DNA of 64,000 bases from an uncultured delta proteobacterium (GCA_963804165.1 CAWDPO010000008.1:81894-145893), one strand, 5' to 3'. Numbered from the stretch's first letter, positions 6,807 through 57,657 are shown. Numbers and translations are program-made. Notes: generated by a model not told the origin, from the letters alone.

Positions 6807-6919
6807 CGCACCAACCGGCATCATCGCGCGTGATTCTTTGAACGAACTCAATTTAAGAAACCAAGAGGACGTTGAGTAACCATTTGGCGAAATTATAGCT
6901 CAGCGGTCGAAGGACGGTC

Positions 6920-7646
6920 ATGTTACAAACAGAACGTGTATCCACTGGAATCGTCGGGCTCGACCCGCTGCTTGAGGGAGGTTTTCCCCAGGGCCGGTCG
7001 GTCCTCATTACCGGGGAGCCCGGACACGGGAAAATCAATTTTCGCCCTGCAATTTCTTGGTGAAGGGCTCAATCGCAATGAGAAGGGTATTTTCGTGACC
7101 GCGGACGAAAGCCCGATGGACATACTCGAGCAAGCAGCTTCAATTGGCTGGGACTTTGAGCGGCATATCGAGACCAAAGATCTGTCGATTTTGAACGCCG
7201 GCACGTATCTCAGCTCGCTGCCGGGTGCGGGCAAAGAACGTCATATCGACGTGCAAAAAGCGGTCAGCGACCTGGCGAGCTTCGTCAAACAACTCGGGGC
7301 CAAGAGACTAGTGCTCGACCCCGCGGGGCCGTTTGTCCTATTGCGCGATAGCGCGGCACGCATCCAAGACCAGGTCCGCTTGTTAATAAAGTTGATGCGA
7401 TCTTCGATGCCGACAACCAACGTCCTTACCTCCTATGCCGTTCCGAGGACCGGCGAACGATCCATGCATGGCATGGAGGAGTATCTCGTAGCCGGTGCGA
7501 TCGTCTTAGAGATGGTCTGGAAAAACGGCGAGCTCGCTCGCAGCCTGATCGTCGAGAAGATGCGTTGCACGGACGTGAAGCCGACTCAACTCGAATTCGA
7601 TATCGTAAAGGGGCAAGGCATCGTGCTTCATCCCCCGCTTCGCTAA
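6920..7646 (+). CDS. KaiC/RAD55-like single-domain RecA-superfamily ATPase 1 (frameshift near 7025)
   Basis: ATG 6920 gives [35 protein letters not shown], continuing in the next frame as [11 protein letters not shown] (Walker A), [16 protein letters not shown] (Walker B), EKMRCT. Confidence 0.85.
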
Positions 7647-7663
7647 AATTTAAAGTTTAGGGA

Positions 7664-8456
7664 ATGGATCTCCAGCGCATTTCAACCGGCATCGCGGGCC
7701 TCGACGCTTTGCTTCACGGTGGCTATCTAAGAGGGCGCACCTACCTGGTGACCGGCGACACCGGCACGGGAAAAACCATCGCTTGTTTGCAGTTCCTGCT
7801 GAACGGCCTCTAAGCGCGGGGAAAAGGCGGTCTACGTCACCGTCGACGAACGCCCGGGTGAGATTTTAGACTCGGCGGCGTCATTTTCCTGGGATCTCCA
7901 GCCGTACATTCAAGAAAAGAGCTTGGTCATCCTGGATGCCTCGCCCTATTTTGGCGCCCGGAGCGCGAGTGCGACGGAAAAAGGTATCGATCCGCAAAAA
8001 GTCGTCGCCGATCTTGGCAACTATGCAAGAAGGCTCAGCGCAACGCTTCTCATCATTGATCCGATAACGCCGCTCATCCTGCCGAACGACGCAACCAGCC
8101 CAAGCCAGGACCAAGCCCGCTCCCTTGTACAATTGATACAAACTCAACTAAATACGACCAATCTGTTTACCGCCCACCTGCCAAAAGTGACGGCCCAGAG
8201 CAGCGCGAACGGCATCGAGCAATATCTCACCTCCGGCGTGTTGGTTCTCAAAACCGATGAGATCGACGGCAAATTTAAGCGCACCGTGACCATCAAGAAA
8301 ATGCGCGGCACACCCGTTGAACCTGGTAACTTTCCTTTTGCGATTCTCGCAAATGACGGAATTGTCCTGACGAGTTGTCGCGCCGGAGAAGTCTCGCGGA
8401 TGGATGGCCCGGCGCCGATGTTTGAATTTTTTCACCTTTCCAAAAGACAATCCTGA
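7664..8456 (+). CDS. KaiC/RAD55-like single-domain ATPase 2 (frameshift near 7811)
   Basis: ATG 7664 gives MDLQRISTGIAGLDALLHGGYLRGRTYLVTGDTGTGKT...LQFL, then KRGEKAVYVTVDERP...WD...LIIDP...KKMRGT; the N-terminal half is absent from the supplied ORF track. Confidence 0.85.
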
Positions 8457-11571: not shown

Positions 11572-13015
11572 ATGAATCGCGCAGCGGACAGCACCGGTGT
11601 GGCGGTCCAGCAAAGACGGCTCACGTTGATTTTATTCAACGTTTGCGTCGGCCAGTTTATCGTCGGCCTCGACCAGCGCGCCTTGCTGGTCGCGCTGCCG
11701 ACCCTGACCGAAACATTTCAATACCAGCCTGACGACCATCCAATGGGTTTTATTGATCTATGATTGCTTTTGATCGGCACCGTGATCACCGTCGGCCGTT
11801 TGGGCGATCTTTTCGGCCGGCGGCGGTTTTACGCCGTGGTTTTCTGGTTTTCGTTTTGAGCTCAGCGCTTTGCGGTTTCGCTCAAACCGCGGGACAAATC
11901 ATTTTGTTCCGCGGCTTGCAAGCGCTCGGCGGCGCCATGATTTCAGCCAACGGTAGGGCGATCGCTCCGTCGCGTTTCCGTCCAGCGAGCGCGGCAAGGC
12001 CATGGGCTTCGCCTCTATGGCCTTCCATGTCGGGTTCTTGACTGGTCCAACCCTCGGCGGATTTTTGATCGACACGATCGGTTGGCGTTGGATTTTTTTC
12101 ATCAATCTGCCGATCGGCATTTGGGGCGCGTTCCTAGCGCTGAAACTCTTGAAGAAAGCAAAGAAGAGGTCAAAGGAATTTCGGTCGATTTTCCCGGCGC
12201 GATCCTGCTCATGCTGACCTGCAGTCTTTTCATCTACGCCATGAATCAGCTGCCGCATGTCGGCTGGCAGGATCCGTTAGTGACCCGAACGATGTGGACT
12301 GTCTGTCGTGGCTCTGGCGCTTTTCGTATTCGCCGAGCTGAGATCGCCCATGCCGATCTTAAGCTTTTCGCTCTTTCGCAATCGGCTTTTCACCGCCTCC
12401 ATGCTCAGCTTGTTTTTCATCACCTCGACGCAATCGGCCATCAGTTTTCTGATGCCGTTTTATTTGCAGAACATACTCCATTTTTCCCCGACACATATGG
12501 GCTGGATCATCATCGCCAATTCTGCGGTCATCGTCATGGTCGCGCCCATAGCCGGATGGCTGTCGGATCGCATGGGTTCGCGTCTGCTGTGCACCGTTGG
12601 CTCCGGGTTGATCGTCGATCGGACAGTTCTTCATCGCATCGTTGGGAATTGATTCGTCGATTCCGCGGATCATTTTGCCGTTATTCTTGATCGGCTTTGG
12701 CTGGGCATATTCAATTCACCGAACCAGAGCGCAATCATGGGTTCGGTACCTCGCGACAAACTCGGTACGGCATCGGGCATGAACACCGACCACTGCCCGG
12801 ACCGGCGGCGCGATGGGCGTCGCCCTTTCCGCGACTTGTTCACCTACGGACTCGCCGCCGCGGCATGACCGCGAGCGCAAATCGAATCGCCGCAAACTTG
12901 GGGCACCGCGCCGGAAGTATTCGTCCATTCATTTAATCACACGGTGCATATCGTTAACATCTTCACGATTCTCTCGGTCCTGTTTTCGGTGGTGCGCGGT
13001 CCACGCCACGAGTAG
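11572..13015 (+). CDS. MFS drug:H+ antiporter (DHA2/EmrB-like), multiple frameshifts
   Basis: Consecutive fragments: GLDQRALLVALPTL, GRLGDLFGRRR, GPTLGGFLIDTIGWRWIFFINLPIG, AGWLSDRMGSR, FNSPNQSAIMG. Confidence 0.85.
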
Positions 13016-13039
13016 CCCAACAATTTGTGAACGAGTTCC

Positions 13040-14469
13040 ATGACGACGGCGGAACAAACCATTTCACGACGGACATCGCGGCTTATCCTGTTAAGCGTCT
13101 GCATCGGCCAGACCATCGTCGGTCTCGATCAGCGCGCCCTCACGGTGGCTCTGCCCACTCTGACGAGCGCGTTCCACACGCCTTCACGACGATCCAATGG
13201 ACGATCTTCGTCTATGATCTAGTGCTGATCGGCCTGATCATCACGATGGGACGATTGGGCGATTTGTTCGGGCGACGCCGTTTCTACAGCATGGGGTTTT
13301 TGATTTTCGTGGCCGCGTCCGCCATTTGCGGCCTGTCGCAAAGCGCCGGCCAGCTGATTTTTTTCCGCGCGCTGCAGGCGCTCGGCGGTTCCATGATCGC
13401 CGCCAACGGCCGTGCGATTGTCTCGGTTAATTTGCCGCCGGAGGACCGCGGGCGCGCTCTCGGCCTGACTTCCACGGCGTTCCACATCGGTTTTCTCACC
13501 GGCCCGTCCTGGGTGGTTTTCTGATCGATACCATCGGCTGGCGCTGGATTTTCTACATCAACATGCCGTTCAGCCTGTGGGCGCTTATCTCGCGTGGAAG
13601 GTCGTTCCCGAGACACGCGATGGCGGAAAATCGGCGATCGATATTCCTGGCGCTCTGCTGCTACTCGTGACCAATGGCCTGTTTATTTACGCCATCGATC
13701 AACTGCCGCGGATCGGCTGGCGCCACCCGATGTTTCTACTGACTCTGGTGCTTTCGGTGATCTCGTTATTTTTCCTGTTGCGCATCGAAGCCAGGGCGAA
13801 GACACCGATTTTGATTTTGTCGATGTTTCGCTCTCAACTTTTTAGCGCGGGCATTATGAGTCTGTTTCTAATCTCCGGCACCTTATCGGCAATCAATTTT
13901 CTCCTGCCGTTCTTCCTGCAGAACTTGCTTGGCTATTCGCCATCGCAGGTCGGCTGGATCATCGTCGCCGACTCAGCGATCATCATGATCATGGCGCCGA
14001 TCGCCGGGGCCTTGTCTGATCGTCTTCGGCTCGCGATTGCTCTGCACAGTCGGCTGCGCCGTCGTCGCCGTCGCGCAATTCTTCCTGGCCACCCTGGACC
14101 TGCACTCGTCGCTGATCAGGATATTTTCCCATTGGCGCTCTGGGGCGTAGGGTGGGCGTTATTCAACGCGCCCAATCAAAGCTCGATACTGGGCGCGGTC
14201 AATCCGGACAAGATCGGCGCCGCCGCCGGCATGATCGCGACCACAGCGCGCACCGGCGGCGCTATGGGAGTGGCTCTGTCGGCGACGCTGTTTGGCTATC
14301 TGCTATCGGCGGCGGGCTTGAGCGGGGGCCAAATTGGCTCGCCTGAAAGCTGGCGCGCTGCGCCGGACACCTTTATGGTGCCTTCAGCACAACGATTTAC
14401 TTTTTGAATGTCTTCACGTTGTTGGCAGTTTTTTCATCCGCGATCCGGGGGAAGAGACCGGGAGATTGA
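13040..14469 (+). CDS. Second paralogous MFS (DHA2-like) transporter, frameshifted
   Basis: GLDQRALTVALPTL, GRLGDLFGRRRFY, GWALFNAPNQSSILG; colinear with the upstream paralog. Confidence 0.85.
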
Positions 14470-17981: not shown

Positions 17982-18926
17982 ATGTCTCATCCGTACGAAG
18001 CCGTCCTTTTGATCGCCTTCGGCGGTCCCAGTTCGCCGGCGGAAATTCGCCCGTTTCTTGAGCGCGTTACGAAAGGCATTGCGCTGCCGCCCGAGCGTCA
18101 CGAAGAAGTGGCGCATCACTACGAAGCCGTCGGCGGCAAATCGCCGCTCAAAGAAATTACCTTCCGTCAGGCCGATGCACTTCGAAAGTATTTAGAATCA
18201 GCGAGCATAAAACTTCCCGTCTACATTGGCCTGCGCAACAGCAGCCCGTTTTTTACGGACACATTGAGACGAATGACGAGCGACGGCGTTACGCGAGCCT
18301 TGGGTTTCATTCTTTCTTCACATCGAACCGAAGCAAGCTGGGATCGCTATCAGAAAAATATCGCCGATGCGCAAGCCGAACTTGGCGTCGAAGCTCCGGC
18401 GATAGATTTTTGCGAAGGCTGGCACGACCATCCACTTTTCATTCAAACTTGGTCGAAACTGACTGAAGCTGCATTCGGCAAAATTCCACATGATAAAAGA
18501 AGTGATACACCCTTGATTTTTACAGCTCATAGTTTGCCCACATCGATGGCTTCACGATCGCCGTACGTCGAGCAGCTCGAAACCACAGCTCGGTTAATCG
18601 CTGAACGGCTGGGTCATCGTCGCTGGTCGCTCGCATATCAAAGCCGCAGCGGTAGACCGAGTGATCCGTGGCTCGAGCCCGATATTGGCGATGCCATCCG
18701 AAAAGTAGCCAACGAAGGTCGCAAGGAAGTCGTCGTCGCTCCGATTGGCTTTGTTTGCGATCACGTCGAAATTTTGTACGACCTCGACATCGCGGCAAAA
18801 CAAATCTCAGAAGATCTCGGCGTGGGGTTTCATCGAGCAAACTGCCCAAATGATCATCCGACGTTCATCCGGATGATGGCCGACGTGATTGAGCAAAAAC
18901 TAAAAAGAACCGAAGATCGAGGATAG
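17982..18926 (+). CDS. hemH: Ferrochelatase
   Basis: HYEAVGGKSP, FTAHSLP, YQSRSG...WLEPD, PIGFVCDHVEILYDLD. Confidence 0.95.
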   Translation: MSHPYEAVLLIAFGGPSSPAEIRPFLERVTKGIALPPERHEEVAHHYEAVGGKSPLKEITFRQADALRKYLESASIKLPVYIGLRNSSPFFTDTLRRMTSDGVTRALGFILSSHRTEASWDRYQKNIADAQAELGVEAPAIDFCEGWHDHPLFIQTWSKLTEAAFGKIPHDKRSDTPLIFTAHSLPTSMASRSPYVEQLETTARLIAERLGHRRWSLAYQSRSGRPSDPWLEPDIGDAIRKVANEGRKEVVVAPIGFVCDHVEILYDLDIAAKQISEDLGVGFHRANCPNDHPTFIRMMADVIEQKLKRTEDRG

Positions 18927-18975
18927 AAGATGGAGAATCGCGATCCTCGATCATCGATCCTCCATCCTCGACCTT
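18911..18975. repeat. Hairpin of 7-bp units (GAGGATC-like / GATCCTC-like) between hemH and hemY
   Basis: gaagatcgaggatagaagatggagaatcgcgatcctcgatcatcgatcctccatcctcga. Confidence 0.7.
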
Positions 18976-18982
18976 CTGTCTC

Positions 18983-20414
18983 ATGAACCGGCGCGTCGTC
19001 GTCATCGGCGGCGGCGTCGCCGGCCTTGCTGCCGCACACCGCATTGCCGAGCTTGCCAACGAAAGATCTCTCAGTGTCGAACTCACACTGCTCGAAGCCT
19101 CGCAACGGCTTGGCGGCACGATCGCCACGGAAAGAGTCGGCGATTTTCTCGTCGAAGCCGGACCGGACTCATTCATCACGGAAAAACCCTGGGCACTCCG
19201 TCTCTGCGAGCGCATCGGCCTCACATCACGACTTGTCTCAACCCAGTCCGCGTATCAAAAGATCTACATCGTCCACCGAGGAAAGCTGATCGCGCTGCCC
19301 GAAGGTTTTTTTCTCCTCGCACCGACGCGTCTTTGGCCTTTTGTCCGGACGCCGCTTTTCTCATGGTCGGGCAAACTGCGCATGGCGAGCGAACTTCTGC
19401 TTCCGCGCGGTAATATGAATGAGGATGAAACCCTCGGTTCGTTTGTCCGCCGGCGTTTCGGCAGCGAAGCTCTTGAGCGCGTCGCTCAGCCCCTGGTCGG
19501 CGGCATCTATGCTTCCGACCCGGACCAACTGAGTCTCGGCGCGACCATGCCGCGGTTCAAAGAGATGGAATCAAAGAAGCGCAGCGTCATCTGGGCAATG
19601 TGGTCCGAGCAAAGAATTCGCGCCCGCAACCGTGAAGCCGGCAGCGGCGCACGCTGGAGCTTGTTCGTCACGCTCGCGGGTGGAATGCAGGAATTGGTCG
19701 ATACCCTCGCCAAGCGTCTTCCCGAACCGACAATCCGTCTCAATTCTCGCGTCACCGGTTTGCTTTGCGACGAAACCAATAAAACTTGGCGGATCACCAT
19801 TGGCAACGACGAAACGATGCTTGCCGATGCTGTGATCCTCGCGACGCCCGCGTTTCAAACCGGCGCCATCACTTCTGCAATTACGAAGGACGCAGCCATC
19901 GAACTCAAGAATATCTCTTATGCTTCTACAGCGACCGTGAGTCTCGGCGTACCGTCGCGACGACTTCACCCAGGCACCGGATAGCTTCGGTTTCGTCGTG
20001 CCGGCGATAGAACATCGTAAGGTCATGGCTTGCACCTTCAGCAGTCTGAAATACCCTGGCCGAGCGCCGGAAGGTCATGTTTTGCTGCGCGCTTTCGTCG
20101 GCGGCGCGTTGCAACCGGAATTGTTTGGCGACGACGACGCGGCCATGGGGAATAACGTCCGTGAGGAACTTGCAAATTTACTTGGCGTCCGCGCCCAACC
20201 TATCTTCGCACGCATTAGGCGCCATCCGAATTCAATGCCACAATACCACGTCGGCCATGAAGCTCGCATCAAACGAATCGAAGCTTCTTTGCGCCAATTT
20301 CCCACGCTCGCCCTCGCCGGCAGCGCCTATCACGGCGTCGGCATTTCCGATTGTGTTCGAAGCGGCGAAGAAGCCGCGGCAAAACTCATCGCCCAGATCG
20401 ATTCCGCAACGTAA
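18983..20414 (+). CDS. hemY: HemY-type proto/coproporphyrinogen oxidase (frameshift near 19950)
   Basis: VIGGGVAGLAAA (FAD binding), EAGPDSF, PLVGGIYA; second frame supplies MPQYHVGH and LAGSAYHGVGISDCV. Confidence 0.92.
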
Positions 20415-24004: not shown

Positions 24005-25182
24005 TCAGATGACGCCCTTCTCTTTAAACTCCGCCATCTTCGCGTCGTCGTAACCGAGCGAATTTAGAAACTCACCGTTATGCTCGCCCAACTCCGGCGG
24101 CGGTGCCGGGTGGAGAGGCTTGGTTTCGCTGTACTCCAAGGGAAATTTCACCGTGCGGATCGACGGTTTGTTCTTCCGGTCGATCTTGATTTCCATGCCC
24201 ATGTGTTTGATCTGCGGGTCTTCGAAGACTTCTGCCAGATTGTATACCGGCGTGTGCGGCACATCCTTGGCTTCGAGTTGCGCGAGCCAGTAGGCGCGCG
24301 GTTTATTGTTGAAAAATCTCCGCGAAGGTCGCGTTCAACTCATCGTAATTTTTCCGTCGATCCGGCCGGGTATTGAAGCGCGGATCTTCGATCAGCTCGG
24401 GGTGCTCAGCCGCATTGCACAAACCCTCCCAAAATTTTTGCGGCGAAGACAGATGAATCGCGAACGGCAAACCGTCCGAGCCGGAGAACGCATACGTCTG
24501 CGATTGCCGCGGGCGAGTGTACGGACCCGGCGGCCGTCCGTGCGCCAAAGTTTCGGTCGCCGGCGCGATTAAAAATCCCAGCACCGCTCCGGCCATGGTT
24601 GCGTCGACTTGCTGTCCCCTGCCGGTTTTTGTTCTGGCGGCCAGCGCGCCCAAAACGCCGAGCGCCGAGTAGAGCCCGCTTAAATGGTCGGCGTAGGCCG
24701 GCCCGATGGGGCGTGGATTCTTAGGATCCATCAAAACACTCATCATACCGCCCAACCCTTGGCCAACCGTGTCGTACGCCGGCCGGTTGACGTACGGACC
24801 CGTCGGGCCGGTGCCGGTAATCGAGCAGCAGATAATCTGATCGTTAATTTTGCTTAATGTTTCGTAATCGATGCCGAGTTTTTTCGTCACTCCCGGACGA
24901 TAGTTTTCGATGACCACGTCGGCGTGTTTGGCAAGCCCGTAAAAAATTTCCTTTCCTTCGGCAGTCTGAAGATTTAACGTGATGCTCTTTTTGCCGCGAT
25001 TGAAAGCCCAGAAATTCGGCTGATCGCCGCCCAAGTCCCAGCCCCGAAACGGATCGCCGCCCTTTGGGATTTTCGACTTTGATCACTTCTGCTCCCATGT
25101 CGGCGAGCAAGCACGCGCCGAACGGCCCGGAAATAAAATTTCCCAACTCCAAAATCTTGATCCCTTCCAAACAACCTTTCAT
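24005..25182 (-). CDS. Second family III CoA-transferase paralog (two frameshifts)
   Basis: Three ORF pieces (24844..25182, 24303..25034, 24005..24262) colinear and highly similar to 22767..23942. Confidence 0.9.
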
Positions 25183-25392: not shown

Positions 25393-26764
25393 ATGGCTAC
25401 GCCGCCACCCGTCACGGATACAATGGTTCGCTTCGTGATCGAAACCGACTTTGCCGTGATATCGGATCAAACCCGTGCCAACGCGAAAATGCATATCCTC
25501 GACACGCTCGGCGTAGCGCTCGCCGGTGTCGAGCAACCGGCGGCAGCGATCGCGCTCGATTACTGCCGTCGCCTCGGTTCTTCCAATGAAGCATCCGATC
25601 TGGGGCACGCGATCAAATGCATCGGTGTCGACGGCGGCATTCGCCAATGGTCTTTTTGCCCACGCGCTCGACTATGACGACTGGGAGCCGTTCATCCACG
25701 TCGGCCACCCGTCCAGCATGATTATCGGCGCGGCGTTGCCGCTGGCCGAAAGTACCGGGGCGACTGGTAAGGAACTGCTAAAGGCTTACGTGCTGGCCAT
25801 CGAAGTCATCTGCAAGCTCGCCGCCAACGCGCCGAACATGCAAGACCGCGGCTTCCACAGCACGCCGGTCTTTGGCAGCCTTGGCGCCGCCGTCGCTTGC
25901 TCGAGTCTTGTTGAAGTTGGATGCGGCAAAATCAAAGGCCGCTCTGGGTGTTGCTGCATCGGCCGCCGGCGGTATCCACCGCCAGCAAGGATCCATGGTG
26001 AAGCCGTTTCACGCCGGCAACGCCGCGCGCAACGGCGCCGAAGCAGCGCTGCTCTCAGCGGCAGGTTTCACCGCCGACGCGGCGATCCTCGAAGCGCCGC
26101 GCGGATTTTGCGACACCTTCTTCGGTCCGGGCACCTGCAATTACGAAAAAATGATCGAGAACATCGGCAAGCCATACTTTTTGGAATCGCCCGGCTTGGG
26201 CCTCAAATGGCACCCATGCAGCGCGCCGCAGTTTCTCGCCGCCGACGCGGCACTCTACTTGAAGCGCGCGCACAAGATCGATTTCGCCAATGTTGCGAAT
26301 ATCGAAGTCAGCATTCCTCCCCTGCGTTACCAGCGCCACTACGCTGCCGAAGTCAAAACCGGACTGCGCGGCAAATTTGCCATCAACTACGTCGTCGCGC
26401 ATGTGCATCTTCGACGGCAAACTGGAACTGGCGACGTTTACGGACGAGAAAGTCAATCGGCCGCAAGTCCAAGAAGCGTTGCAAAAAGTTAAAGTAATCT
26501 GCGACGAAACCATTCCCGAGCCCGGGCCCTACTGCCCGGTCACCGTCGAACTAAAAGACGGCACGCGCTTGAGCCACACGGCGAAAATCGCCAAAGGCGA
26601 TCCGCGCAATCCCATGACGGAAGAACGAAGTCGTGGAAAAGTTTCGCGGCAATGCCAAGTTGGTGATTTCGGAGAAACAAGCGGAAGAGTTGATTGCGAC
26701 CGTGCGCAACTTGGAAGCCGTCGACAATGTGAAAGACCTCGTCAGTCTGCTCGCGCCCGCATAG
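25393..26764 (+). CDS. MmgE/PrpD family protein (several frameshifts)
   Basis: ILDTLGVALAG, AHALDYDD...HPS, RGFH, KPFHAGNAARNG, KGDPRNPM; AAGGAG RBS before ATG 25393. Confidence 0.88.
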
Positions 26765-26792
26765 AACGCATATTGTTTCAGATGCACTTATT

Positions 26793-27090
26793 GTGTCATT
26801 CCGAGGCGAAGCCGAGGAACCTCTGTCGAAAGGTAAGATCCTCCGAGTCCGCGGGCCTGCGTGAAAACACCGTTCATGGTTCCCTTCGTTATTGAGCTCC
26901 GGGCAGGCTGGCTCACCACGAACGGTGCGGTTTCGTTCAAAATAAAGTCTTTAACCGCTCGCCCTGAGACTCGTCGAAGGGTTCCGATAGAGTTTTCGCC
27001 CAGTCTGCCGTTGATGAAAGAGTTTCTGCCGGATGGGTTGAGTGCAGCGAAACCCATCGTTGCACCACTCCAATACTCCACCACTCCATT
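26793..27090. repeat. Composite of degenerate REP-like palindromic elements and (ACTCCA) octamer units
   Basis: tgtcattccgaggcgaagccgagga..., ccgttcatggtt...caccacgaacgg, cgccctgag...gtcgaaggg, cactccaatactccaccactcca. Confidence 0.55.
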
Positions 27091-37047: not shown

Positions 37048-38548
37048 ATGACGCACGTCCCTAACCACCCCGCCGCCGCGCGATTCGCCTTCGACAATAC
37101 CTATGCGCGCGAACTCGAGGGCTTCTACGTGCCCTGGAAGGCGGCGCAAGTGGCGCGGCCTAGCTTGGTCAAGCTCAACCGTGAGTTGGCTGAAGAATTG
37201 GGGCTTGAATGCCGGTGCTCTCGATTCCGATGGAGGCGCGAGGATCTTTGCCGGTACTGAGATACCCGAGGGAGCGCTGCCATTGGCCCAAGCGTACGCC
37301 GGCCACCAGTTCGGTGGCTTCGCGCCCCAACTTGGCGACGGCCGGGCGCTGCTCTTGGGCGAGGTGATCGACCGCAACGGACGTCGTCGTGACATTCAGC
37401 TCAAAGGCTCGGGTCCCACTCCCTTTTCGCGCAACGGCGACGGCCGGGCAGCGCTCGGTCCCGTGCTGCGTGAATACCTGATCGGCGAAGCGATGCACGC
37501 GCTCGGGATCCCAACGACCCGGGCGCTTGCCGCAGTCGTTACTGGCGAGCCTGTCTTTCGCGAGGAGGGTGCGCTGCCGGGCGCCGTTTTGACGCGGGTT
37601 GCTGCCAGCCACATCCGTGTCGGCACCTTCCAATTGTTCGCCTCCCGCGGTGAGCAGGCCAAGGTGCGTCGCCTGGCCGATTACGTCATCGATCGTCACT
37701 ACCCTGACCTGGAGGGCCACGCGAACCCCTACGTGGGATTGCTCGAGCGCGTGTGCGACAGCCAAGCAGCGCTCATTGCCAGCTGGATGCACGTGGGCTT
37801 CATCCATGGCGTGATGAACACCGACAATATGGCGATCTCCGGTGAGACGATCGACTACGGCCCATGCGCCTTCATGGATCATTATGATCCGGCGACAGTC
37901 TTCAGCTCCATCGACACTCGGGGTCGCTATGCCTACGCCAATCAGCCCAGGATCGCGCATTGGAACCTTGCGCGGTTTGCGGAGACGCTGGTCCCGCTGA
38001 TCGATGCCGATGAAAAGCGCGCCATCGCGCACGCCACCGGAGTGATCAATGCCTTTCCAGAACAATACGAACGCCACTGGCTGAAGGGCATGCGCGCCAA
38101 GCTCGGGCTGGTCAGTGAGGACGAGGCCGATCTCAACCTCGCCACCGGTTTGCTCGCCGCAATGGATGGCAAGAACGTCGACTACACGTTGGCTTTCCGC
38201 TACCTTGCCGATGCGGCCTTGGGCGAGGAGCAACCAATTCGCGCGCTGTTTGCCGATCCGTCGGCCTACGATCTCTGGAGTGGACACTGGCGCGCGCGCC
38301 TTGCGCGCGAGGCGGTGGCGCCTTTGGCGCGCGCGCAGGCGATGCGGCGTGTTAATCCCGCGTTCATTCCGCGCAATCATCGAGTCGAAGAAGCCTTGAG
38401 CGCTGCAGTGGAGCGCGACGATTACGCGCCTTTCGAGACGCTGCTGAATATCCTATCGCACCCGTTCGACGATCAGCTGGAGTTTGCCGCCTTTGCCGAA
38501 CCTGCGCCGGAAGGGCGTGAGCGCTACCAAACCTTCTGAGGCACCTGA
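37048..38548 (+). CDS. selO: SelO/YdiU protein adenylyltransferase; frameshift near 37205; probable in-frame Sec UGA at 38537-38539
   Basis: [50 protein letters not shown]; ends tac caa acc ttc TGA ggc acc tga = YQTF(U)GT*. Confidence 0.92.
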
Positions 38549-38577
38549 GTCACGCGTCCGGGCGACGCAAAATTTCA
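38546..38577 (+). promoter_or_regulatory. Candidate bacterial SECIS hairpin
   Basis: GCGTC-CGGGC-GACGC stem-loop with a G-containing apical loop starting 20 nt after the in-frame UGA. Confidence 0.5.
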
Positions 38578-38617
38578 CGAGCTTCACCAGCAAGAACGCT
38601 TTCCGTTTGCGACCAAC

Positions 38618-38800
38618 TAGTGTCCCGGCCCAGAAGTTCGCAAAACAAGTCGGAGGTCACATCGTCGTGCCGTCGAAAGCCAGCAGGCATCCAGGTTCGC
38701 GATTTTTCTGGATTCCGGGTCGCGCTACCCCGGACTGTGATCCGGGGTTGCCCGGAATGACGGATGAATTATGTAGCGAACTTCTAAGTCGGCACATTAT
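38618..38800. mobile_element. MITE/REP-like element with imperfect terminal inverted repeats (copy 2)
   Basis: tagtgtcccggcccagaagttcgc ... gcgaacttctaagtcggcacatta; internal tggattccgggtcgc...ggggttgcccggaatgacg is the reverse complement of the 35851 element. Confidence 0.75.
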
Positions 38801-39020: not shown

Positions 39021-39036
39021 ATAACTTTCTGAGACT

Positions 39037-39402
39037 ATGCCAAAGACAACCGTTGTCTTTTACCAAGATGACCCGGACACGGTCCCGGTGCTCGATTGGT
39101 TAGATTCGCTGCCTATGAAAGCTCTGGACAAATGTCGGGTTCGAATCGAACGGTTGCGTGATTTGGGTCATGAACTTCGACGCCCAGAGGCCGACTTCTT
39201 ACGAGATGGGATTTATGAACTACGGGTTCGACTCAGAACCACGAATTATCGAATGCTATACTTCTTCCATGGTCGGATTGCAGCGGTACTGGCGCACGGT
39301 CTGGTAAAAGAAAGTGAAGTACCTCAACACGATATTGAGCTAGCGATCCGAAGAAAATTGAATTTTGAACTCGACCCGGATCGATACACGTACAAGGAGT
39401 AG
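39037..39402 (+). CDS. Type II toxin, RelE/HigB (Gp49-like)
   Basis: PV.DWL..L, LRRP.AD.LRDGIYELR, YRMLYFF, HGLVK. Confidence 0.88.
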   Translation: MPKTTVVFYQDDPDTVPVLDWLDSLPMKALDKCRVRIERLRDLGHELRRPEADFLRDGIYELRVRLRTTNYRMLYFFHGRIAAVLAHGLVKESEVPQHDIELAIRRKLNFELDPDRYTYKE

Positions 39403-39407
39403 AAATC

Positions 39408-39740
39408 ATGGCAAAAACAAAGAGGAAAGCGACAGCGGATGCCGTTGAAATTCTCCACCGTCGCTATTATGCAGGCAAGCCGCGCCGACTCGCGGCTTTG
39501 GAGCAAGCACGATCGAACGACCACGTCGCTCGAAAGCTAACCGCACTGAGAATTGCGAACCGGCTAAGCCAACGTCAATTGGCACAACTCATCGGAACCA
39601 CAGCGTCAGTCATTTGTCGTCTCGAAGACGCCAGCTACGAGGGTCATTCCCTGGCGATGCTCAACCGAATCGCCGCGGCGCTAAATCAGCGCGTCGAGAT
39701 TCGTTTTGTGCCGGCAGAACGACGCTTGCGCTCCGCATGA
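39408..39740 (+). CDS. XRE-family HTH antitoxin (HigA-like)
   Basis: LSQRQLAQLIGTTASVICRLE...SLAMLNRIAAAL; directly downstream of the toxin. Confidence 0.88.
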   Translation: MAKTKRKATADAVEILHRRYYAGKPRRLAALEQARSNDHVARKLTALRIANRLSQRQLAQLIGTTASVICRLEDASYEGHSLAMLNRIAAALNQRVEIRFVPAERRLRSA

Positions 39741-43141: not shown

Positions 43142-43435
43142 ATGTCCAAAACGATCCCTATCTCAGAGGTGAAAACACGATTGCCAGAGCTCGTCTCCGG
43201 TGTCGAGGAGCGTGACGATGAGATCGTCGTCACGCGCAACGGGAAACCTGCTGCCGTGCTGGTGAATTACACCGAATACGAGCGATTGAAAGAGACGTTG
43301 GATGTCTTGAGCGATCCCGCATCGATGAGGCAGATCGCTCAGAGTAAACGTTTCTACGCCAAAGGTCGGCAAGGAGACTCCTTCGAAACCGTCTTTGGCG
43401 AATCTCTCGTTGCGCGTAAACGTCGGAAGAAATAA
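43142..43435 (+). CDS. Phd/YefM antitoxin
   Basis: ISEVKTRLPELV, VTRNGKPAAVLV...YE.L.ETL. Confidence 0.92.
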   Translation: MSKTIPISEVKTRLPELVSGVEERDDEIVVTRNGKPAAVLVNYTEYERLKETLDVLSDPASMRQIAQSKRFYAKGRQGDSFETVFGESLVARKRRKK

Positions 43436-43731
43436 TGGCCGGCTATCGGCCCGAGATTCCTCCTCATGTGGCTGAGGTCGTACGCCACTTAACTCCGGAA
43501 TTAAAGCGCGGCATCAAGGAAGCGCTTCGATCTTTAAGCGCCGATCCCTTCGTCGGTGCGCCGCTCATCGGAGAATTGACCGGCCTGTGGCGGATCAAAG
43601 TCAGGCGGTTTCGCATTGTTTACGAACTCGATCGCAAAGCCCGCGTGCTAAGGATTTTCGCCATCGGCCACCAGCGAGAAGTTTACGAAGAAGTAGCCGA
43701 CCGACTGCGCCAGGGAAGAGAACGTAGGTAG
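43435..43731 (+). CDS. RelE/ParE toxin
   Basis: G.PL.GELTGLWRIKV.RFRIVY...IGHQREVY; TAATG overlap with the antitoxin. Confidence 0.9.
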   Translation: MAGYRPEIPPHVAEVVRHLTPELKRGIKEALRSLSADPFVGAPLIGELTGLWRIKVRRFRIVYELDRKARVLRIFAIGHQREVYEEVADRLRQGRERR

Positions 43732-48513: not shown

Positions 48514-48542
48514 TGAGCTATATTCGCACAGTTTATAGCTCA
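48514..48542. promoter_or_regulatory. Inverted-repeat operator abutting the Fic start codon
   Basis: TGAGCTATA-N11-TATAGCTCA, a perfect 9-bp IR. Confidence 0.65.
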
Positions 48543-49666
48543 TGAATTCTGAAAAAACTTGGAATTGGCAGCAGGAAGATTGGCCTAAGTTCCGCTACGA
48601 CAAAGCCGCCGTTGAGGCGCTGGAGTCTAAGTTTCTACTTCAAGGCGGCCTTCTGCAGGGGGTACTTCTTCACCTCAGTGACGACGACAAGAGCTCATTG
48701 ACCGTCGACCTGATCAGCACCGAGGTGCTCAAGACTTCGGAGATCGAAGGCGAGCTTCTCAATCGCGAGAGCGTCCAATCATCCATCCGGCGCAATTTCG
48801 GTCTCGCTGCCGATGCGCGCAGAGTTCCGCCGGCCGAGCAGGGTATCGCCGACATGATGATCGATCTCTACAAAACCTTTGGTGAGCCGCTCACGCATGA
48901 AACCATGTTCCGATGGCACGGCATGCTTACGGCCGGCAGGCGCGATTTAAAAACCGTGGGCGCCTATAGAACGGACGCTGAGCCAATGCAGATTATTTCC
49001 GGTCCGATCGGCAATCCGACGATTCATTTCGAAGCACCCCCATCCACCGTCGTGGAAAAGGAAATGGCAGGGTTTGTCACGTGGTTCAACGATACCGCGC
49101 CGGGCGGCAGGACAGCATTGCAAGCGCTAACGCGCGCCGGCATCGCGCACCTGTATTTTGCCACCATCCACCCGTTTGAAGACGGCAACGGACGCATTGC
49201 CCGCGCCCTGGCCGAAAAGGTCCTGTCGCAGACCCTCGGTCAGCCAACCTTGATCGCGCTTTCACAGACGATCCAGAAGGAGAGAAATTCTTATTACGAC
49301 GCGCTACACCGCAGCAGCAAGGACAACGAAATCACCGCGTGGCTTGTGTATTGCGCCGAAACCATTTTGCGAGCGCAGGATACAACCCGGCGCATGAGCG
49401 AATTTCTGATCCAGAAAACCAAGCTCTACGATAGGGTCAAGAACCAACTCAATGAGCGGCAGGAGAAAGCCCTCAGCCGAATCTTCCGCGAAGGAATCGA
49501 AGGTTTCAAAGGAGGGCTCAGCGCTGAGAATTACATTTCGATCACCGGCGCCGCCCGCGCCACGGCCACGCGCGATCTTCAAGACCTCGTCGACAAAGGC
49601 GTCCTCACCCGCACCGGCGCGCTCAAGGGCACGCGCTACCATTTGAACATCGAAACAAGAAAATAG
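48542..49666 (+). CDS. Fic family protein (DUF4172 N-terminus, C-terminal HTH)
   Basis: WNWQ..DWP.F, HPFEDGNGRIAR, ATATRDL.DLV.KG. Confidence 0.93.
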   Translation: MNSEKTWNWQQEDWPKFRYDKAAVEALESKFLLQGGLLQGVLLHLSDDDKSSLTVDLISTEVLKTSEIEGELLNRESVQSSIRRNFGLAADARRVPPAEQGIADMMIDLYKTFGEPLTHETMFRWHGMLTAGRRDLKTVGAYRTDAEPMQIISGPIGNPTIHFEAPPSTVVEKEMAGFVTWFNDTAPGGRTALQALTRAGIAHLYFATIHPFEDGNGRIARALAEKVLSQTLGQPTLIALSQTIQKERNSYYDALHRSSKDNEITAWLVYCAETILRAQDTTRRMSEFLIQKTKLYDRVKNQLNERQEKALSRIFREGIEGFKGGLSAENYISITGAARATATRDLQDLVDKGVLTRTGALKGTRYHLNIETRK

Positions 49667-49709
49667 ATCTGCGACGCGGCAGTAACCGATTGACCGGGAG
49701 CAACCGCTC

Positions 49710-49729
49710 CTGTACATTTAAATGTACAG
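49710..49729. promoter_or_regulatory. Perfect 20-bp palindromic TA operator
   Basis: CTGTACATTTAAATGTACAG, TGTACA-core boxes of the kind bound by Phd/YefM, just upstream of the RBS. Confidence 0.8.
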
Positions 49730-49743
49730 TACGAGGAGTCGCC

Positions 49744-50043
49744 ATGAAGCAATTATCACTCACCGAAGCGCGTGCCAAGCTGAGTACGTTGGTGGCGGAA
49801 GTCGACAAGGGAAAGGGGCCCATCGCGATTGCGCAACGGTCGAAGGTCAAGGCGCTGCTCGTCGATCCCGAGTGGCATGGCAGGGTTGAAGAAGAACTCG
49901 CCCACTACCGAAGCCGCTCAAGGCAATCGCCGTTGAAACTGCAGGGCAGCATGACTTTGACGGGAGATCTGGACCAAGCGCTCCAAGATCTTAGGAAAGA
50001 AAGGGAGCAGTCCCTCCAAGGAGTCATTGCCGCACTCAAGTGA
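49744..50043 (+). CDS. Phd/YefM antitoxin
   Basis: LSLTEARAKLSTLV..V...PIAI; AGGAG RBS. Confidence 0.85.
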   Translation: MKQLSLTEARAKLSTLVAEVDKGKGPIAIAQRSKVKALLVDPEWHGRVEEELAHYRSRSRQSPLKLQGSMTLTGDLDQALQDLRKEREQSLQGVIAALK

Positions 50044-50441
50044 TTTACGTGACCGATACGCACCCGCTGGTTTTCTGGTCATCAAACCGTAAACGACGGC
50101 TGGGAAACCAGGCATGCCGAATCTTGCAAGAGACGGATCAGGGCAAACACTCCATCATCGTGCCGATTGTCGTTCTGGAAGAAATCAACCGACTCGTGGA
50201 AAGAAAAATTGTTCGCTTGGACGTGCCGTTTCGTCGCTGGGCCGAAGAGCTCGAACGTTCCCCGAACTTTCAAGTCCAGGCCTATACGTTGGAAGTTTTA
50301 CTCGAATCGGTGTCGCTGATGGCAATCCGCGACCCGGCGGACAGAGCTATCGTCGCGACGGCGCGACAGCTCCGCTGTCCGCTCATCACCGCCGATGAAC
50401 TCATTCGAGATGGCGATTGGGTCGATACGGTTTGGGAGTAA
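50040..50441 (+). CDS. VapC/PIN-domain toxin
   Basis: YVTDTH, E, DPADRAIVATA, LITAD. Confidence 0.9.
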   Translation: MIYVTDTHPLVFWSSNRKRRLGNQACRILQETDQGKHSIIVPIVVLEEINRLVERKIVRLDVPFRRWAEELERSPNFQVQAYTLEVLLESVSLMAIRDPADRAIVATARQLRCPLITADELIRDGDWVDTVWE

Positions 50442-56745: not shown

Positions 56746-57657
56746 TCAGACTTGCCTAAATCTACTAACTTAATTCTTCTGCAGGGCACGGCTGACGTTG
56801 GATGGATGGCAATTAAGAAAATTCGCTACCTGAGAAGCAAGGTAGCCCTGCTCCAACACGGCTTCGCGGATGAATCGATCCCGGGCCTCTACGACGGTTG
56901 CCAGCCGGCCCTTGCGAAGCAATATCTCGGGCGAAAGTCCCGCCTTGTTGCCACACTCTTAAGTAGGTCCTTCAGCGACGCACGCCGGGAGACGGGCAAA
57001 TGGACTGTTTCTTTAGCGATCTTCTTAACGAAGCGCTCCGGTCCTAAAAATGGCGCCCCATCTCCGGGATGCCATTCTGCTCGATAATTCACTTTCGCTC
57101 CATCCCGGATAAACGCTTCATAACGAGCAGCTGTCCTCAACTCGCCCATCACTGGTCCCGAGTCGATCAGCCCGCGTTTTTCCTTTCCCAAGTATTCTCC
57201 GTGCCCGCTCCATTGCCATTCGTTGGGCCGCTTGACCATTGTAGCCCTGACCGGATTCAGATGAATGTAACGGACCAATTCCAATAAATAGCTATCCCGA
57301 TCGCATACGATGGCCTTGTAGCGCCCCTCAAACAAATGCCCCCGCCGGTGGTGGATCTTGTTAAAGCGTCGGACGTACCCGGTCAGCAGCGATTGCAGAA
57401 TCCTGGCCGTCGGGAAGCGATGGACCTCCAACAACAAATGAAAGTGGTTCGACATCAAGACATAGGCGTAGAGAGAGAACGGGTAGCGTTGACGCACGGT
57501 CCGAAGCGCTTCGATGAAGCCCTGATAGTCGCTTTGGCTGAGAAAAATCTTCTGCCCATCATTGCCGCGGGCTAACACGTGATAAAGCAATCCTTCGGCA
57601 TGAACTCGGGCGTGACGCGGCATCGCTATCATGAGTTAGTAGATTTAGGAAGTCTGA
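56746..57657 (-). mobile_element. Compact ~912-bp element: HUH/Y1 transposase gene bounded by 24-25 bp inverted repeats
   Basis: Left TCAGACTTGCCTAAATCTACTAACT (56746-56770); right AGTTAGTAGATTTAGGAAGTCTGA (57634-57657). Confidence 0.85.
56770..57632 (-). CDS. RAYT-like (IS200/Y1 HUH) tyrosine transposase with C-terminal HTH (frameshift near 56946)
   Basis: MPR.AR..YHV.ARGN, YVLMSNHFHLL (HUH), GHLFEGRYKA, RYIHLNPVRA (catalytic Y), WSGH; corrected C-terminus ...EARDRFIREAVLEQGYLASQVANFLNCHPSNVSRALQKN*. Confidence 0.92.

Follow-up and report, generated by a model that had tools for sequence, protein, structure and literature searches.

A predicted selenocysteine codon at the C-terminus of SelO and a SECIS-like hairpin behind its stop codon in soil Binatia

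We propose, with a probability of roughly 0.85, that an in-frame TGA at 38537-38539 of a 64,000-nucleotide stretch of DNA (hereafter the window) encodes selenocysteine (Sec) with the help of a small SECIS in the 3' UTR, and that Sec in this position replaces the C-terminal redox cysteine of the protein adenylyltransferase SelO (YdiU). The host of the window is a soil bacterium of Binatia, phylum Candidatus Binatota. Comparison of sequences between genomes shows where the TGA falls, that close relatives have either TGA or TGC at this codon, that the hairpin goes with the TGA, and that Sec machinery is present. From these, we infer the insertion of Sec, the binding of SelB to the hairpin, the redox switch and the partner cysteine.

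In the mechanism we propose, SelB with Sec-tRNA(Sec) would bind the hairpin at 38554-38568 as the ribosome meets the UGA at 38537-38539; Sec would be inserted, followed by Gly and Thr, and translation would stop at the UGA at 38546-38548 to give a protein ending in YQTF-U-G-T. Sec would thereby stand in for the Cys found at this place near the C-terminus in characterised bacterial SelO proteins, which bonds reversibly with an internal Cys, a bond that turns AMPylation off under oxidation. The internal partner in this protein would probably be the clade-invariant Cys of a DYGPCAF motif.

The SelO gene and its C-terminal codons

The SelO gene occupies 37048..38548 on the plus strand, from an ATG at 37048 through the in-frame TGA to a second TGA, and both its start and the N-terminus of its product agree with those of relatives. 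The stop-to-stop frame at 37052-38536 matches the Pfam SelO family PF02696 with an E-value of 7.9e-113 over profile positions 38-464 of 466, and the residues encoded from 37238 onward match four solved SelO/YdiU sequences at 325-327 bits (327 for E. coli YdiU, 325 for P. syringae SelO). The motif HGVMNTDN (37805..37828, plus strand) is identical to that of E. coli YdiU in the phmmer alignment, and a DYG motif lies 3' of it on the same strand (37853-37861) and is conserved in the same alignment; HGVxNTDN and DYG/DFG are what we take to be the catalytic motifs of SelO/YdiU. By family membership, the product is predicted to be an AMP-transferase.

The 3' end of the gene reads TAC CAA ACC TTC TGA (38537-38539) GGC (38540-42) ACC (38543-45) TGA (38546-48). 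An earlier reading of this DNA, made from the sequence only, had noted that the open reading frame stops at the first TGA and is followed by GGC ACC TGA, and the sequence and the ORF list agree with this, with a 478-aa frame that ends in GRERYQTF and closes at 38539. The same reading had placed the UGA exactly at the Cys position of the SelO tail. When we aligned the read-through product with the TGA residue (U) entered as C, this residue fell on Cys 486 of 488 in P. syringae SelO (6EAC) and on Cys 480 of 482 in E. coli YdiU (6III), so that a Cys or Sec third from the C-terminus, as in the SelO family, is found by alignment to both structures. The codons that follow on the plus strand (38540..38548) would encode Gly and Thr before the true stop.

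The tail TFCGT had also been described as common in bacterial SelO, a statement that held up: of the best 150 among 1.84 billion cluster representatives, 133 end in C-x-x (129 CGT, 2 CNT and 2 CSS), and the remaining 17 are fragments or frame-broken sequences. We found no further Sec-type cluster among these 150, which says little since representatives mask variants within their clusters. Gene callers appear to treat the codon as a stop in many relatives, as 57 of the best 120 of 8000 scored homologues end exactly before the Sec codon and the other 63 end in CGT; about half of these 120 homologues are thus cut at the Sec codon and annotated three residues short.

The available text of one review describes the C-terminal Cys of SelO as forming a regulatory disulfide with a Cys of the activation loop, with Sec in this place in higher eukaryotes (PMC7278666). 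The window SelO shares its fold family, its active-site motifs and a whole-length similarity of about 325 bits with P. syringae SelO (6EAC) and E. coli YdiU (6III, 6K20, 9JYM), and the regulatory Cys of these proteins, third from the C-terminus, corresponds to the TGA position in the window. These two proteins use Cys and end in SC plus two residues, whereas members of the window's clade end in TF(C/U)GT. In addition, the activation-loop Cys that is the disulfide partner in P. syringae and E. coli (in FICNHSD, according to the available text of PMC7278666) is Phe in the window SelO, while the window's clade has the Cys of DYGPCAF. This Cys, encoded at 37865..37867 on the plus strand, is invariant in 119 of 119 close homologues, is kept in Sec-type and Cys-type proteins alike, and corresponds to Phe in the E. 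coli and P. syringae proteins. On this conservation, we consider it the probable redox partner of the C-terminal Sec; redox regulation of the window SelO would itself be expected by analogy with the P. syringae and E. coli literature.

A conserved hairpin behind the stop codon

A candidate SECIS, GCGTC-CGGGC-GACGC, lies in the 3' UTR at 38554..38568 on the plus strand, with arms GCGTC (38554-38558) and GACGC (38564-38568) that form a 5-bp stem around the 5-nt loop CGGGC (38559-38563). It starts 14 nt past the UGA at 38537-38539 and 5 nt past the real stop codon, and its first loop base is 20 nt past the A of the TGA, coordinates that agree with the hairpin and loop distance first noticed in the sequence-only reading. 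A SECIS wholly 3' of the true stop is explained by there being only two codons after Sec, and engineered SECIS elements located behind a stop codon exist. The 15-nt sequence occurs once in the 7.5-Mb genome and is therefore no dispersed repeat.

According to the passages available from a 2026 review, the bacterial SECIS (bSECIS) consensus allows 3-9 nt in the loop and 4-16 bp in the stem, has a G within the first two loop nucleotides, and gives a UGA-to-loop distance of 16-37 nt and an MFE of at most -7.5 kcal/mol (PMC13188914). The loop, the stem, the G (at loop position 2) and the spacing of 19-20 nt are all within these limits. The energy is marginal, as the value is -7.8 kcal/mol for +10..+48 at the window locus and about -7.3 kcal/mol for the bare 5-bp hairpin in loci without other pairing, which just misses the limit. 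Compared with the consensus, therefore, the window hairpin shares loop size, stem length, loop G and UGA distance, but it lies entirely past the true stop and is among the smallest and weakest elements that the model would admit.

Folding of a single sequence is unremarkable in this region: the 71 nt at 38530-38600 have an MFE of -17.9 compared to -15.8 ± 2.95 for shuffled sequences (z = -0.72), with 52 of the 200 shuffles at least as stable, so the case for the hairpin rests on comparison. No relevant Rfam covariance model matched 38450-38700 at E ≤ 10, a result that weighs little because bacterial SECIS elements are described as diverse in the available text of the same review (PMC13188914). 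The hairpin is also unlike a terminator: a promoter/terminator scan gave no terminator call, and it has no T tract behind it.

For the comparison, we took all SelO loci that protein homology returned from a relatives sample of 41 genomes from the genus and order, and recorded which codon each has in place of the Cys. SelO was present in 19 of the 41, with TGA in 12 (the window's genome included) and TGC in 7. All 12 TGA loci continue GGN ACN TGA, with variation at third positions alone (GGC, GGT or GGG; ACC, ACA or ACT), and all 12 have the hairpin, with C or T as the last loop base and a 6-nt loop in one locus. By comparison, the hairpin is intact in none of the nine TGC rows of this sample (seven genomes, two with a second copy). 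Relics with mutations in stem and loop are found in the nearest TGC loci (L015, L016 and L019), and nothing similar is found in the other six. This pattern is that expected if the hairpin were needed for the UGA only and if some Cys forms were derived from Sec forms. Thus, two ideas attached to the earlier reading are borne out by these data: many homologues carry UGA at the same position, paired with TGC in close relatives, and within the Binatia clade the hairpin is kept only where TGA is.

Two side observations concern this sample. Genomes G003 and G004 each have a second, partial copy of the SelO C-terminus (L035 and L036, respectively), an open frame of about 97 aa of Cys type that lies 3.2-3.5 kb from the full-length gene. 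In G018, SelO (L031/L034) is also found in two frames, covering query residues 1-292 and 289-433, and its hairpin has the 6-nt loop CGGGCC.

We then scanned one genome per species, about 185,000 species, for the pattern Tyr-x-Thr-(Phe/Tyr)-TGA-Gly-Thr-TGA. Of the 47 matches, 27 are at the ends of SelO genes; 26 of these are Binatia-type, and each of the 26 has the hairpin, with C, G, T or A as the last loop base and, in one locus, the form GCGTC-CGTGC-GGCGC, in which a U-A pair is changed to U-G. As 11 of the 26 duplicate the relatives sample and 15 are further loci, there are 27 distinct Binatia-type Sec loci overall. Across an alignment of these 27, identity stays at or above 90% in the columns of the hairpin, and the 3-nt spacer 5' of the hairpin and all sequence 3' of it vary freely. 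Over 29 Sec-type 3' ends, the core five pairs are almost invariant and a sixth pair is C-G in 8, U-A in 3, U-G in 1 and unpaired in 17, a count made on an alignment in which two rows, of Reyranella type, are shifted relative to the others. Because the core stem is nearly invariant, the hairpin is supported by its conservation rather than by compensatory change, and true covariation is thin.

Of the 26 Binatia-type scan records, 10 are titled Candidatus Binatia bacterium, 13 are delta proteobacterium MAGs and 3 have other labels. Binatia-type Sec-SelO loci L039, L040 and L071 come from MAGs labelled Acidiferrales, Pseudomonadota and Chloroflexota. The 3' sequence of L071 is that of L025, which is placed in the window's genus, so such labels are unreliable or the bins are mixed.

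The 27th match is a distant, independent case from a Reyranella-labelled MAG, whose SelO has 47% identity across the 154 C-terminal residues compared and ends NYRTY-TGA-GGT-ACC-TGA. Its hairpin has a different stem (CUGCUCC-GUC-GGAGCGG), with a loop that starts about 19 nt past the UGA, and its genome has a SelA match of 538 bits. In this Reyranella-labelled family, 61 genomes gave 30 SelO loci, and the codon is TGA in 2 of these, TGT in 2 and TGC in 26. The second TGA locus reads TGA-GGC-ACC-TAA and has the same stem with a GGG loop. Four Cys-type loci of the nearest subclade (L088, L089, L091 and L092; two TGT and two TGC) retain the hairpin, which in one of the four carries a compensatory U-A to C-G change, and in G086 the hairpin is followed by a U run. 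The hairpin is therefore not strictly tied to TGA in this subclade. These four loci may be recent Sec-to-Cys conversions, an idea that draws on two of them using TGT, a codon absent from the other Cys-type loci among the 30; or else the hairpin may serve another function as well in this subclade.

Sec machinery and exchange between Sec and Cys

All four of the Sec genes that the sequence-only reading had suggested looking for, selA, selB, selC and selD, are found in the window's genome, an assembly of 46 contigs and 7.5 Mb that is 81% complete. The tRNA-Sec scores 76 bits (cut-off 47) and is called SeC, anticodon tca, by ARAGORN. The selA match scores 536 bits; selB scores 357 bits over model positions 2-346, with a C-terminal wing domain in addition, and its match falls in two separate pieces; selD scores 385 bits. 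The genes selA, selB and selD are clustered at 139949-144114 of contig 16 of this genome (G000; L009-L011). The selD gene has its own in-frame TGA in KAAG-TGA-AAKLGP, and by this its product is itself a selenoprotein. The hairpin 3' of the selD TGA (UCGGC-CCC-GCCGA) is unlike that of SelO and has no G in its loop, so the local rule for SelB is not clear. SelA is strong in 38 of the 41 relatives, a tally that includes the unpublished genome G005, and the whole order thus appears to use Sec.

In a SelO tree built without the tail, well-supported branches require at least 4 changes of the Sec/Cys state, and parsimony counts 13. The state of the tail is accompanied by differences at the residue at -5. 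Among the best 120 of 8000 homologues, Cys-type tails have Cys at -5 in 53 of 63 and Arg in 10 of 63, whereas Sec-type tails have His, Arg or Gln there and Cys in 0 of 57; the genome locus L033 carries TGA and does have Cys at -5. In one close pair, P0074 (Sec-type) and P0098 (Cys-type), 492 of 495 residues are the same, and positions -6/-5 (ER in P0074, GC in P0098), beside the Sec/Cys change, account for two of the three differences, a pattern that suggests an exchange or a coupled change of the tail. In a comparison of -5 Cys with Cys tail over phylogenetically independent pairs, only four pairs were usable and the association was not significant (p ~ 0.25), so we treat the coupling of -5 and tail as a lead and not as a result.

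Tentatively, and as a possibility on which we would not insist, the Binatia SelO tail could be viewed as a two-state cassette, in which one state combines Arg or His at -5 with Sec and the 15-nt SECIS, and the other combines Cys at -5 with Cys and a decaying SECIS. Strains would flip repeatedly between the two, perhaps by recombination of the 3' end, and would in this way match the redox switch of the AMPylase to the selenium available. A resolving Cys nearby would not be needed by the Sec form, and the Cys form would gain one (CxxxxC).

Alternative readings and relation to known SelO proteins

The SelO gene of the window is not intact as assembled, as a +1 frameshift splits it into overlapping frames at 37048-37260 and 37103-38539. 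The window has one extra base in GGGGCTTGAATGCC (37204..37209, plus strand) compared to all 20 related loci aligned, and the simplest reading places it in the AA doublet at 37208-37209. We compared the window with Logan contigs of relatives, of at least 88% likeness, from four soil metagenome runs, and all six contigs that span the frameshift, from the four runs, lack one base at 37204-37208. Of the differences from the contigs, 40 were listed (with 232 more), and none of those listed is at 38537-38539, which neither confirms nor denies the TGA. In a search of sequencing runs, the best run contains 0.15 of the window's sampled words. Contigs from an RNA library (X17) cover parts of SelO at less than 95% likeness, so that transcription of the window locus is not thereby shown.

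Five other genes in the window are likewise split between adjacent frames that match consecutive coordinates of one Pfam profile: KaiC (6876-8453), an MFS transporter (12958-14404), an amine oxidase (18893-20411), a family III CoA-transferase (24008-25082) and MmgE/PrpD (PrpD; 25517-26892). Together with a selB in pieces, these indicate an indel-prone assembly, and they agree with the remark in the sequence-only reading that the other errors of the window are indels. We consider the frameshift in SelO to be probably an assembly indel, in which case the SelO gene of the organism is probably intact. The opposite view, that the lineage has a true Sec-SelO but the window copy is a pseudogene in which the extra base is real and no protein is made, draws on the single base that sets the window apart from every related locus aligned and every spanning contig. 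It must be set against at least five other split genes in the same 64 kb, against selB in two pieces, and against the rest of the SelO frame, which is open and 79-91% identical to full-length matches in relatives, and on this balance we judge it unlikely. The error-prone assembly could also be taken to mean that the TGA is itself a base-calling or assembly substitution for TGC. This we find scarcely credible: such errors as we observed are indels, TGA is likewise found in 11 other genomes of the relatives sample and in 26 Binatia-type genomes of the scan, and the locus also carries the linked features of the Sec type, namely Arg at -5 and an intact hairpin.

The TGA could instead be an ordinary stop, so that SelO would be three residues shorter and lack the C-terminal Cys, and the hairpin would be an element of mRNA 3'-end stability or termination. 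Such a view would account for the unexceptional single-sequence fold, the lack of an Rfam SECIS match, the decision of gene callers to end 57 of the best 120 homologues at this codon, and the persistence of the hairpin in the four Reyranella-labelled Cys-type loci, with a U run after it in G086. It does not sit well with the GGN ACN stop that follows the TGA in 12 of 12 loci with synonymous change only, with a hairpin that within Binatia is intact only where TGA is, with a codon that coincides with the Cys reported as regulatory, with Sec machinery throughout the order, or with the lack of a T run behind the hairpin, and we regard it as very improbable. The reading we prefer thus remains that the TGA would be decoded as Sec with the aid of the hairpin behind the true stop.

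A bacterial Sec-SelO as a kind is already in print as a prediction. In the parts of the sources available to us, deep-Sep predicted one in Desulfosediminicola ganghwensis (mSystems 2025, PMC12013277), and the 2026 AEM review lists PF02696, with one Sec, among prokaryotic selenoproteins and gives the accession WP_136798779.1 (PMC13188914). As described there, the Desulfosediminicola protein and the window SelO are both bacterial members of PF02696 with an in-frame TGA, Cys homologues and a SECIS-like structure downstream, and both are computational predictions only. They differ in phylum, which is Desulfobacterota by name for the former and Binatota for the latter; the available text of the papers gives no Sec position, and the likeness is one of description. 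Binatia are not mentioned in the passages on Sec-SelO available to us, and our literature search found no work on selenocysteine in Binatota. Another review, in its available text, limits SelO selenoproteins to higher eukaryotes and describes an invariant Cys in all prokaryotes (PMC7278666). As far as we have searched, three points are new, namely Sec-SelO in Binatia, how extensive its Sec/Cys dimorphism is, and a conserved hairpin located past the stop.

Vertebrate SELENOO and the window SelO both belong to the SelO AMPylase family and have a single Sec near the C-terminus, the vertebrate one in a CxxU motif according to the available text of PMC7278666, whereas the 57 Sec-type tails among the best 120 homologues never have Cys at -5. 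Sec in Binatia SelO is probably independent of that in vertebrate SELENOO, with an origin from Cys ancestors or by repeated switching. In eukaryotes, the SECIS belongs to another type and is located far away in the 3' UTR.

If the reading we prefer is correct, a Sec form of SelO would be common in a major uncultured soil lineage, and the close Sec and Cys forms found side by side would provide a natural matched set for the contribution of selenium to redox control of AMPylation. The hairpin, if functional, would be a compact bacterial SECIS that acts from behind a real stop codon, which would be useful for annotation pipelines and for the engineering of C-terminal Sec.

The neighbourhood of SelO in the window (39025-39737, 43420-43728 and 48539-50438) is rich in toxin-antitoxin-like genes by Pfam matches, among them a Gp49/HigB-like gene with a small ORF downstream, a ParE-like toxin, Fic/DOC with DUF4172, and Phd/YefM with PIN. 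An IS200-like Y1 transposase (PF01797) is located at 56892-57635 on the minus strand.
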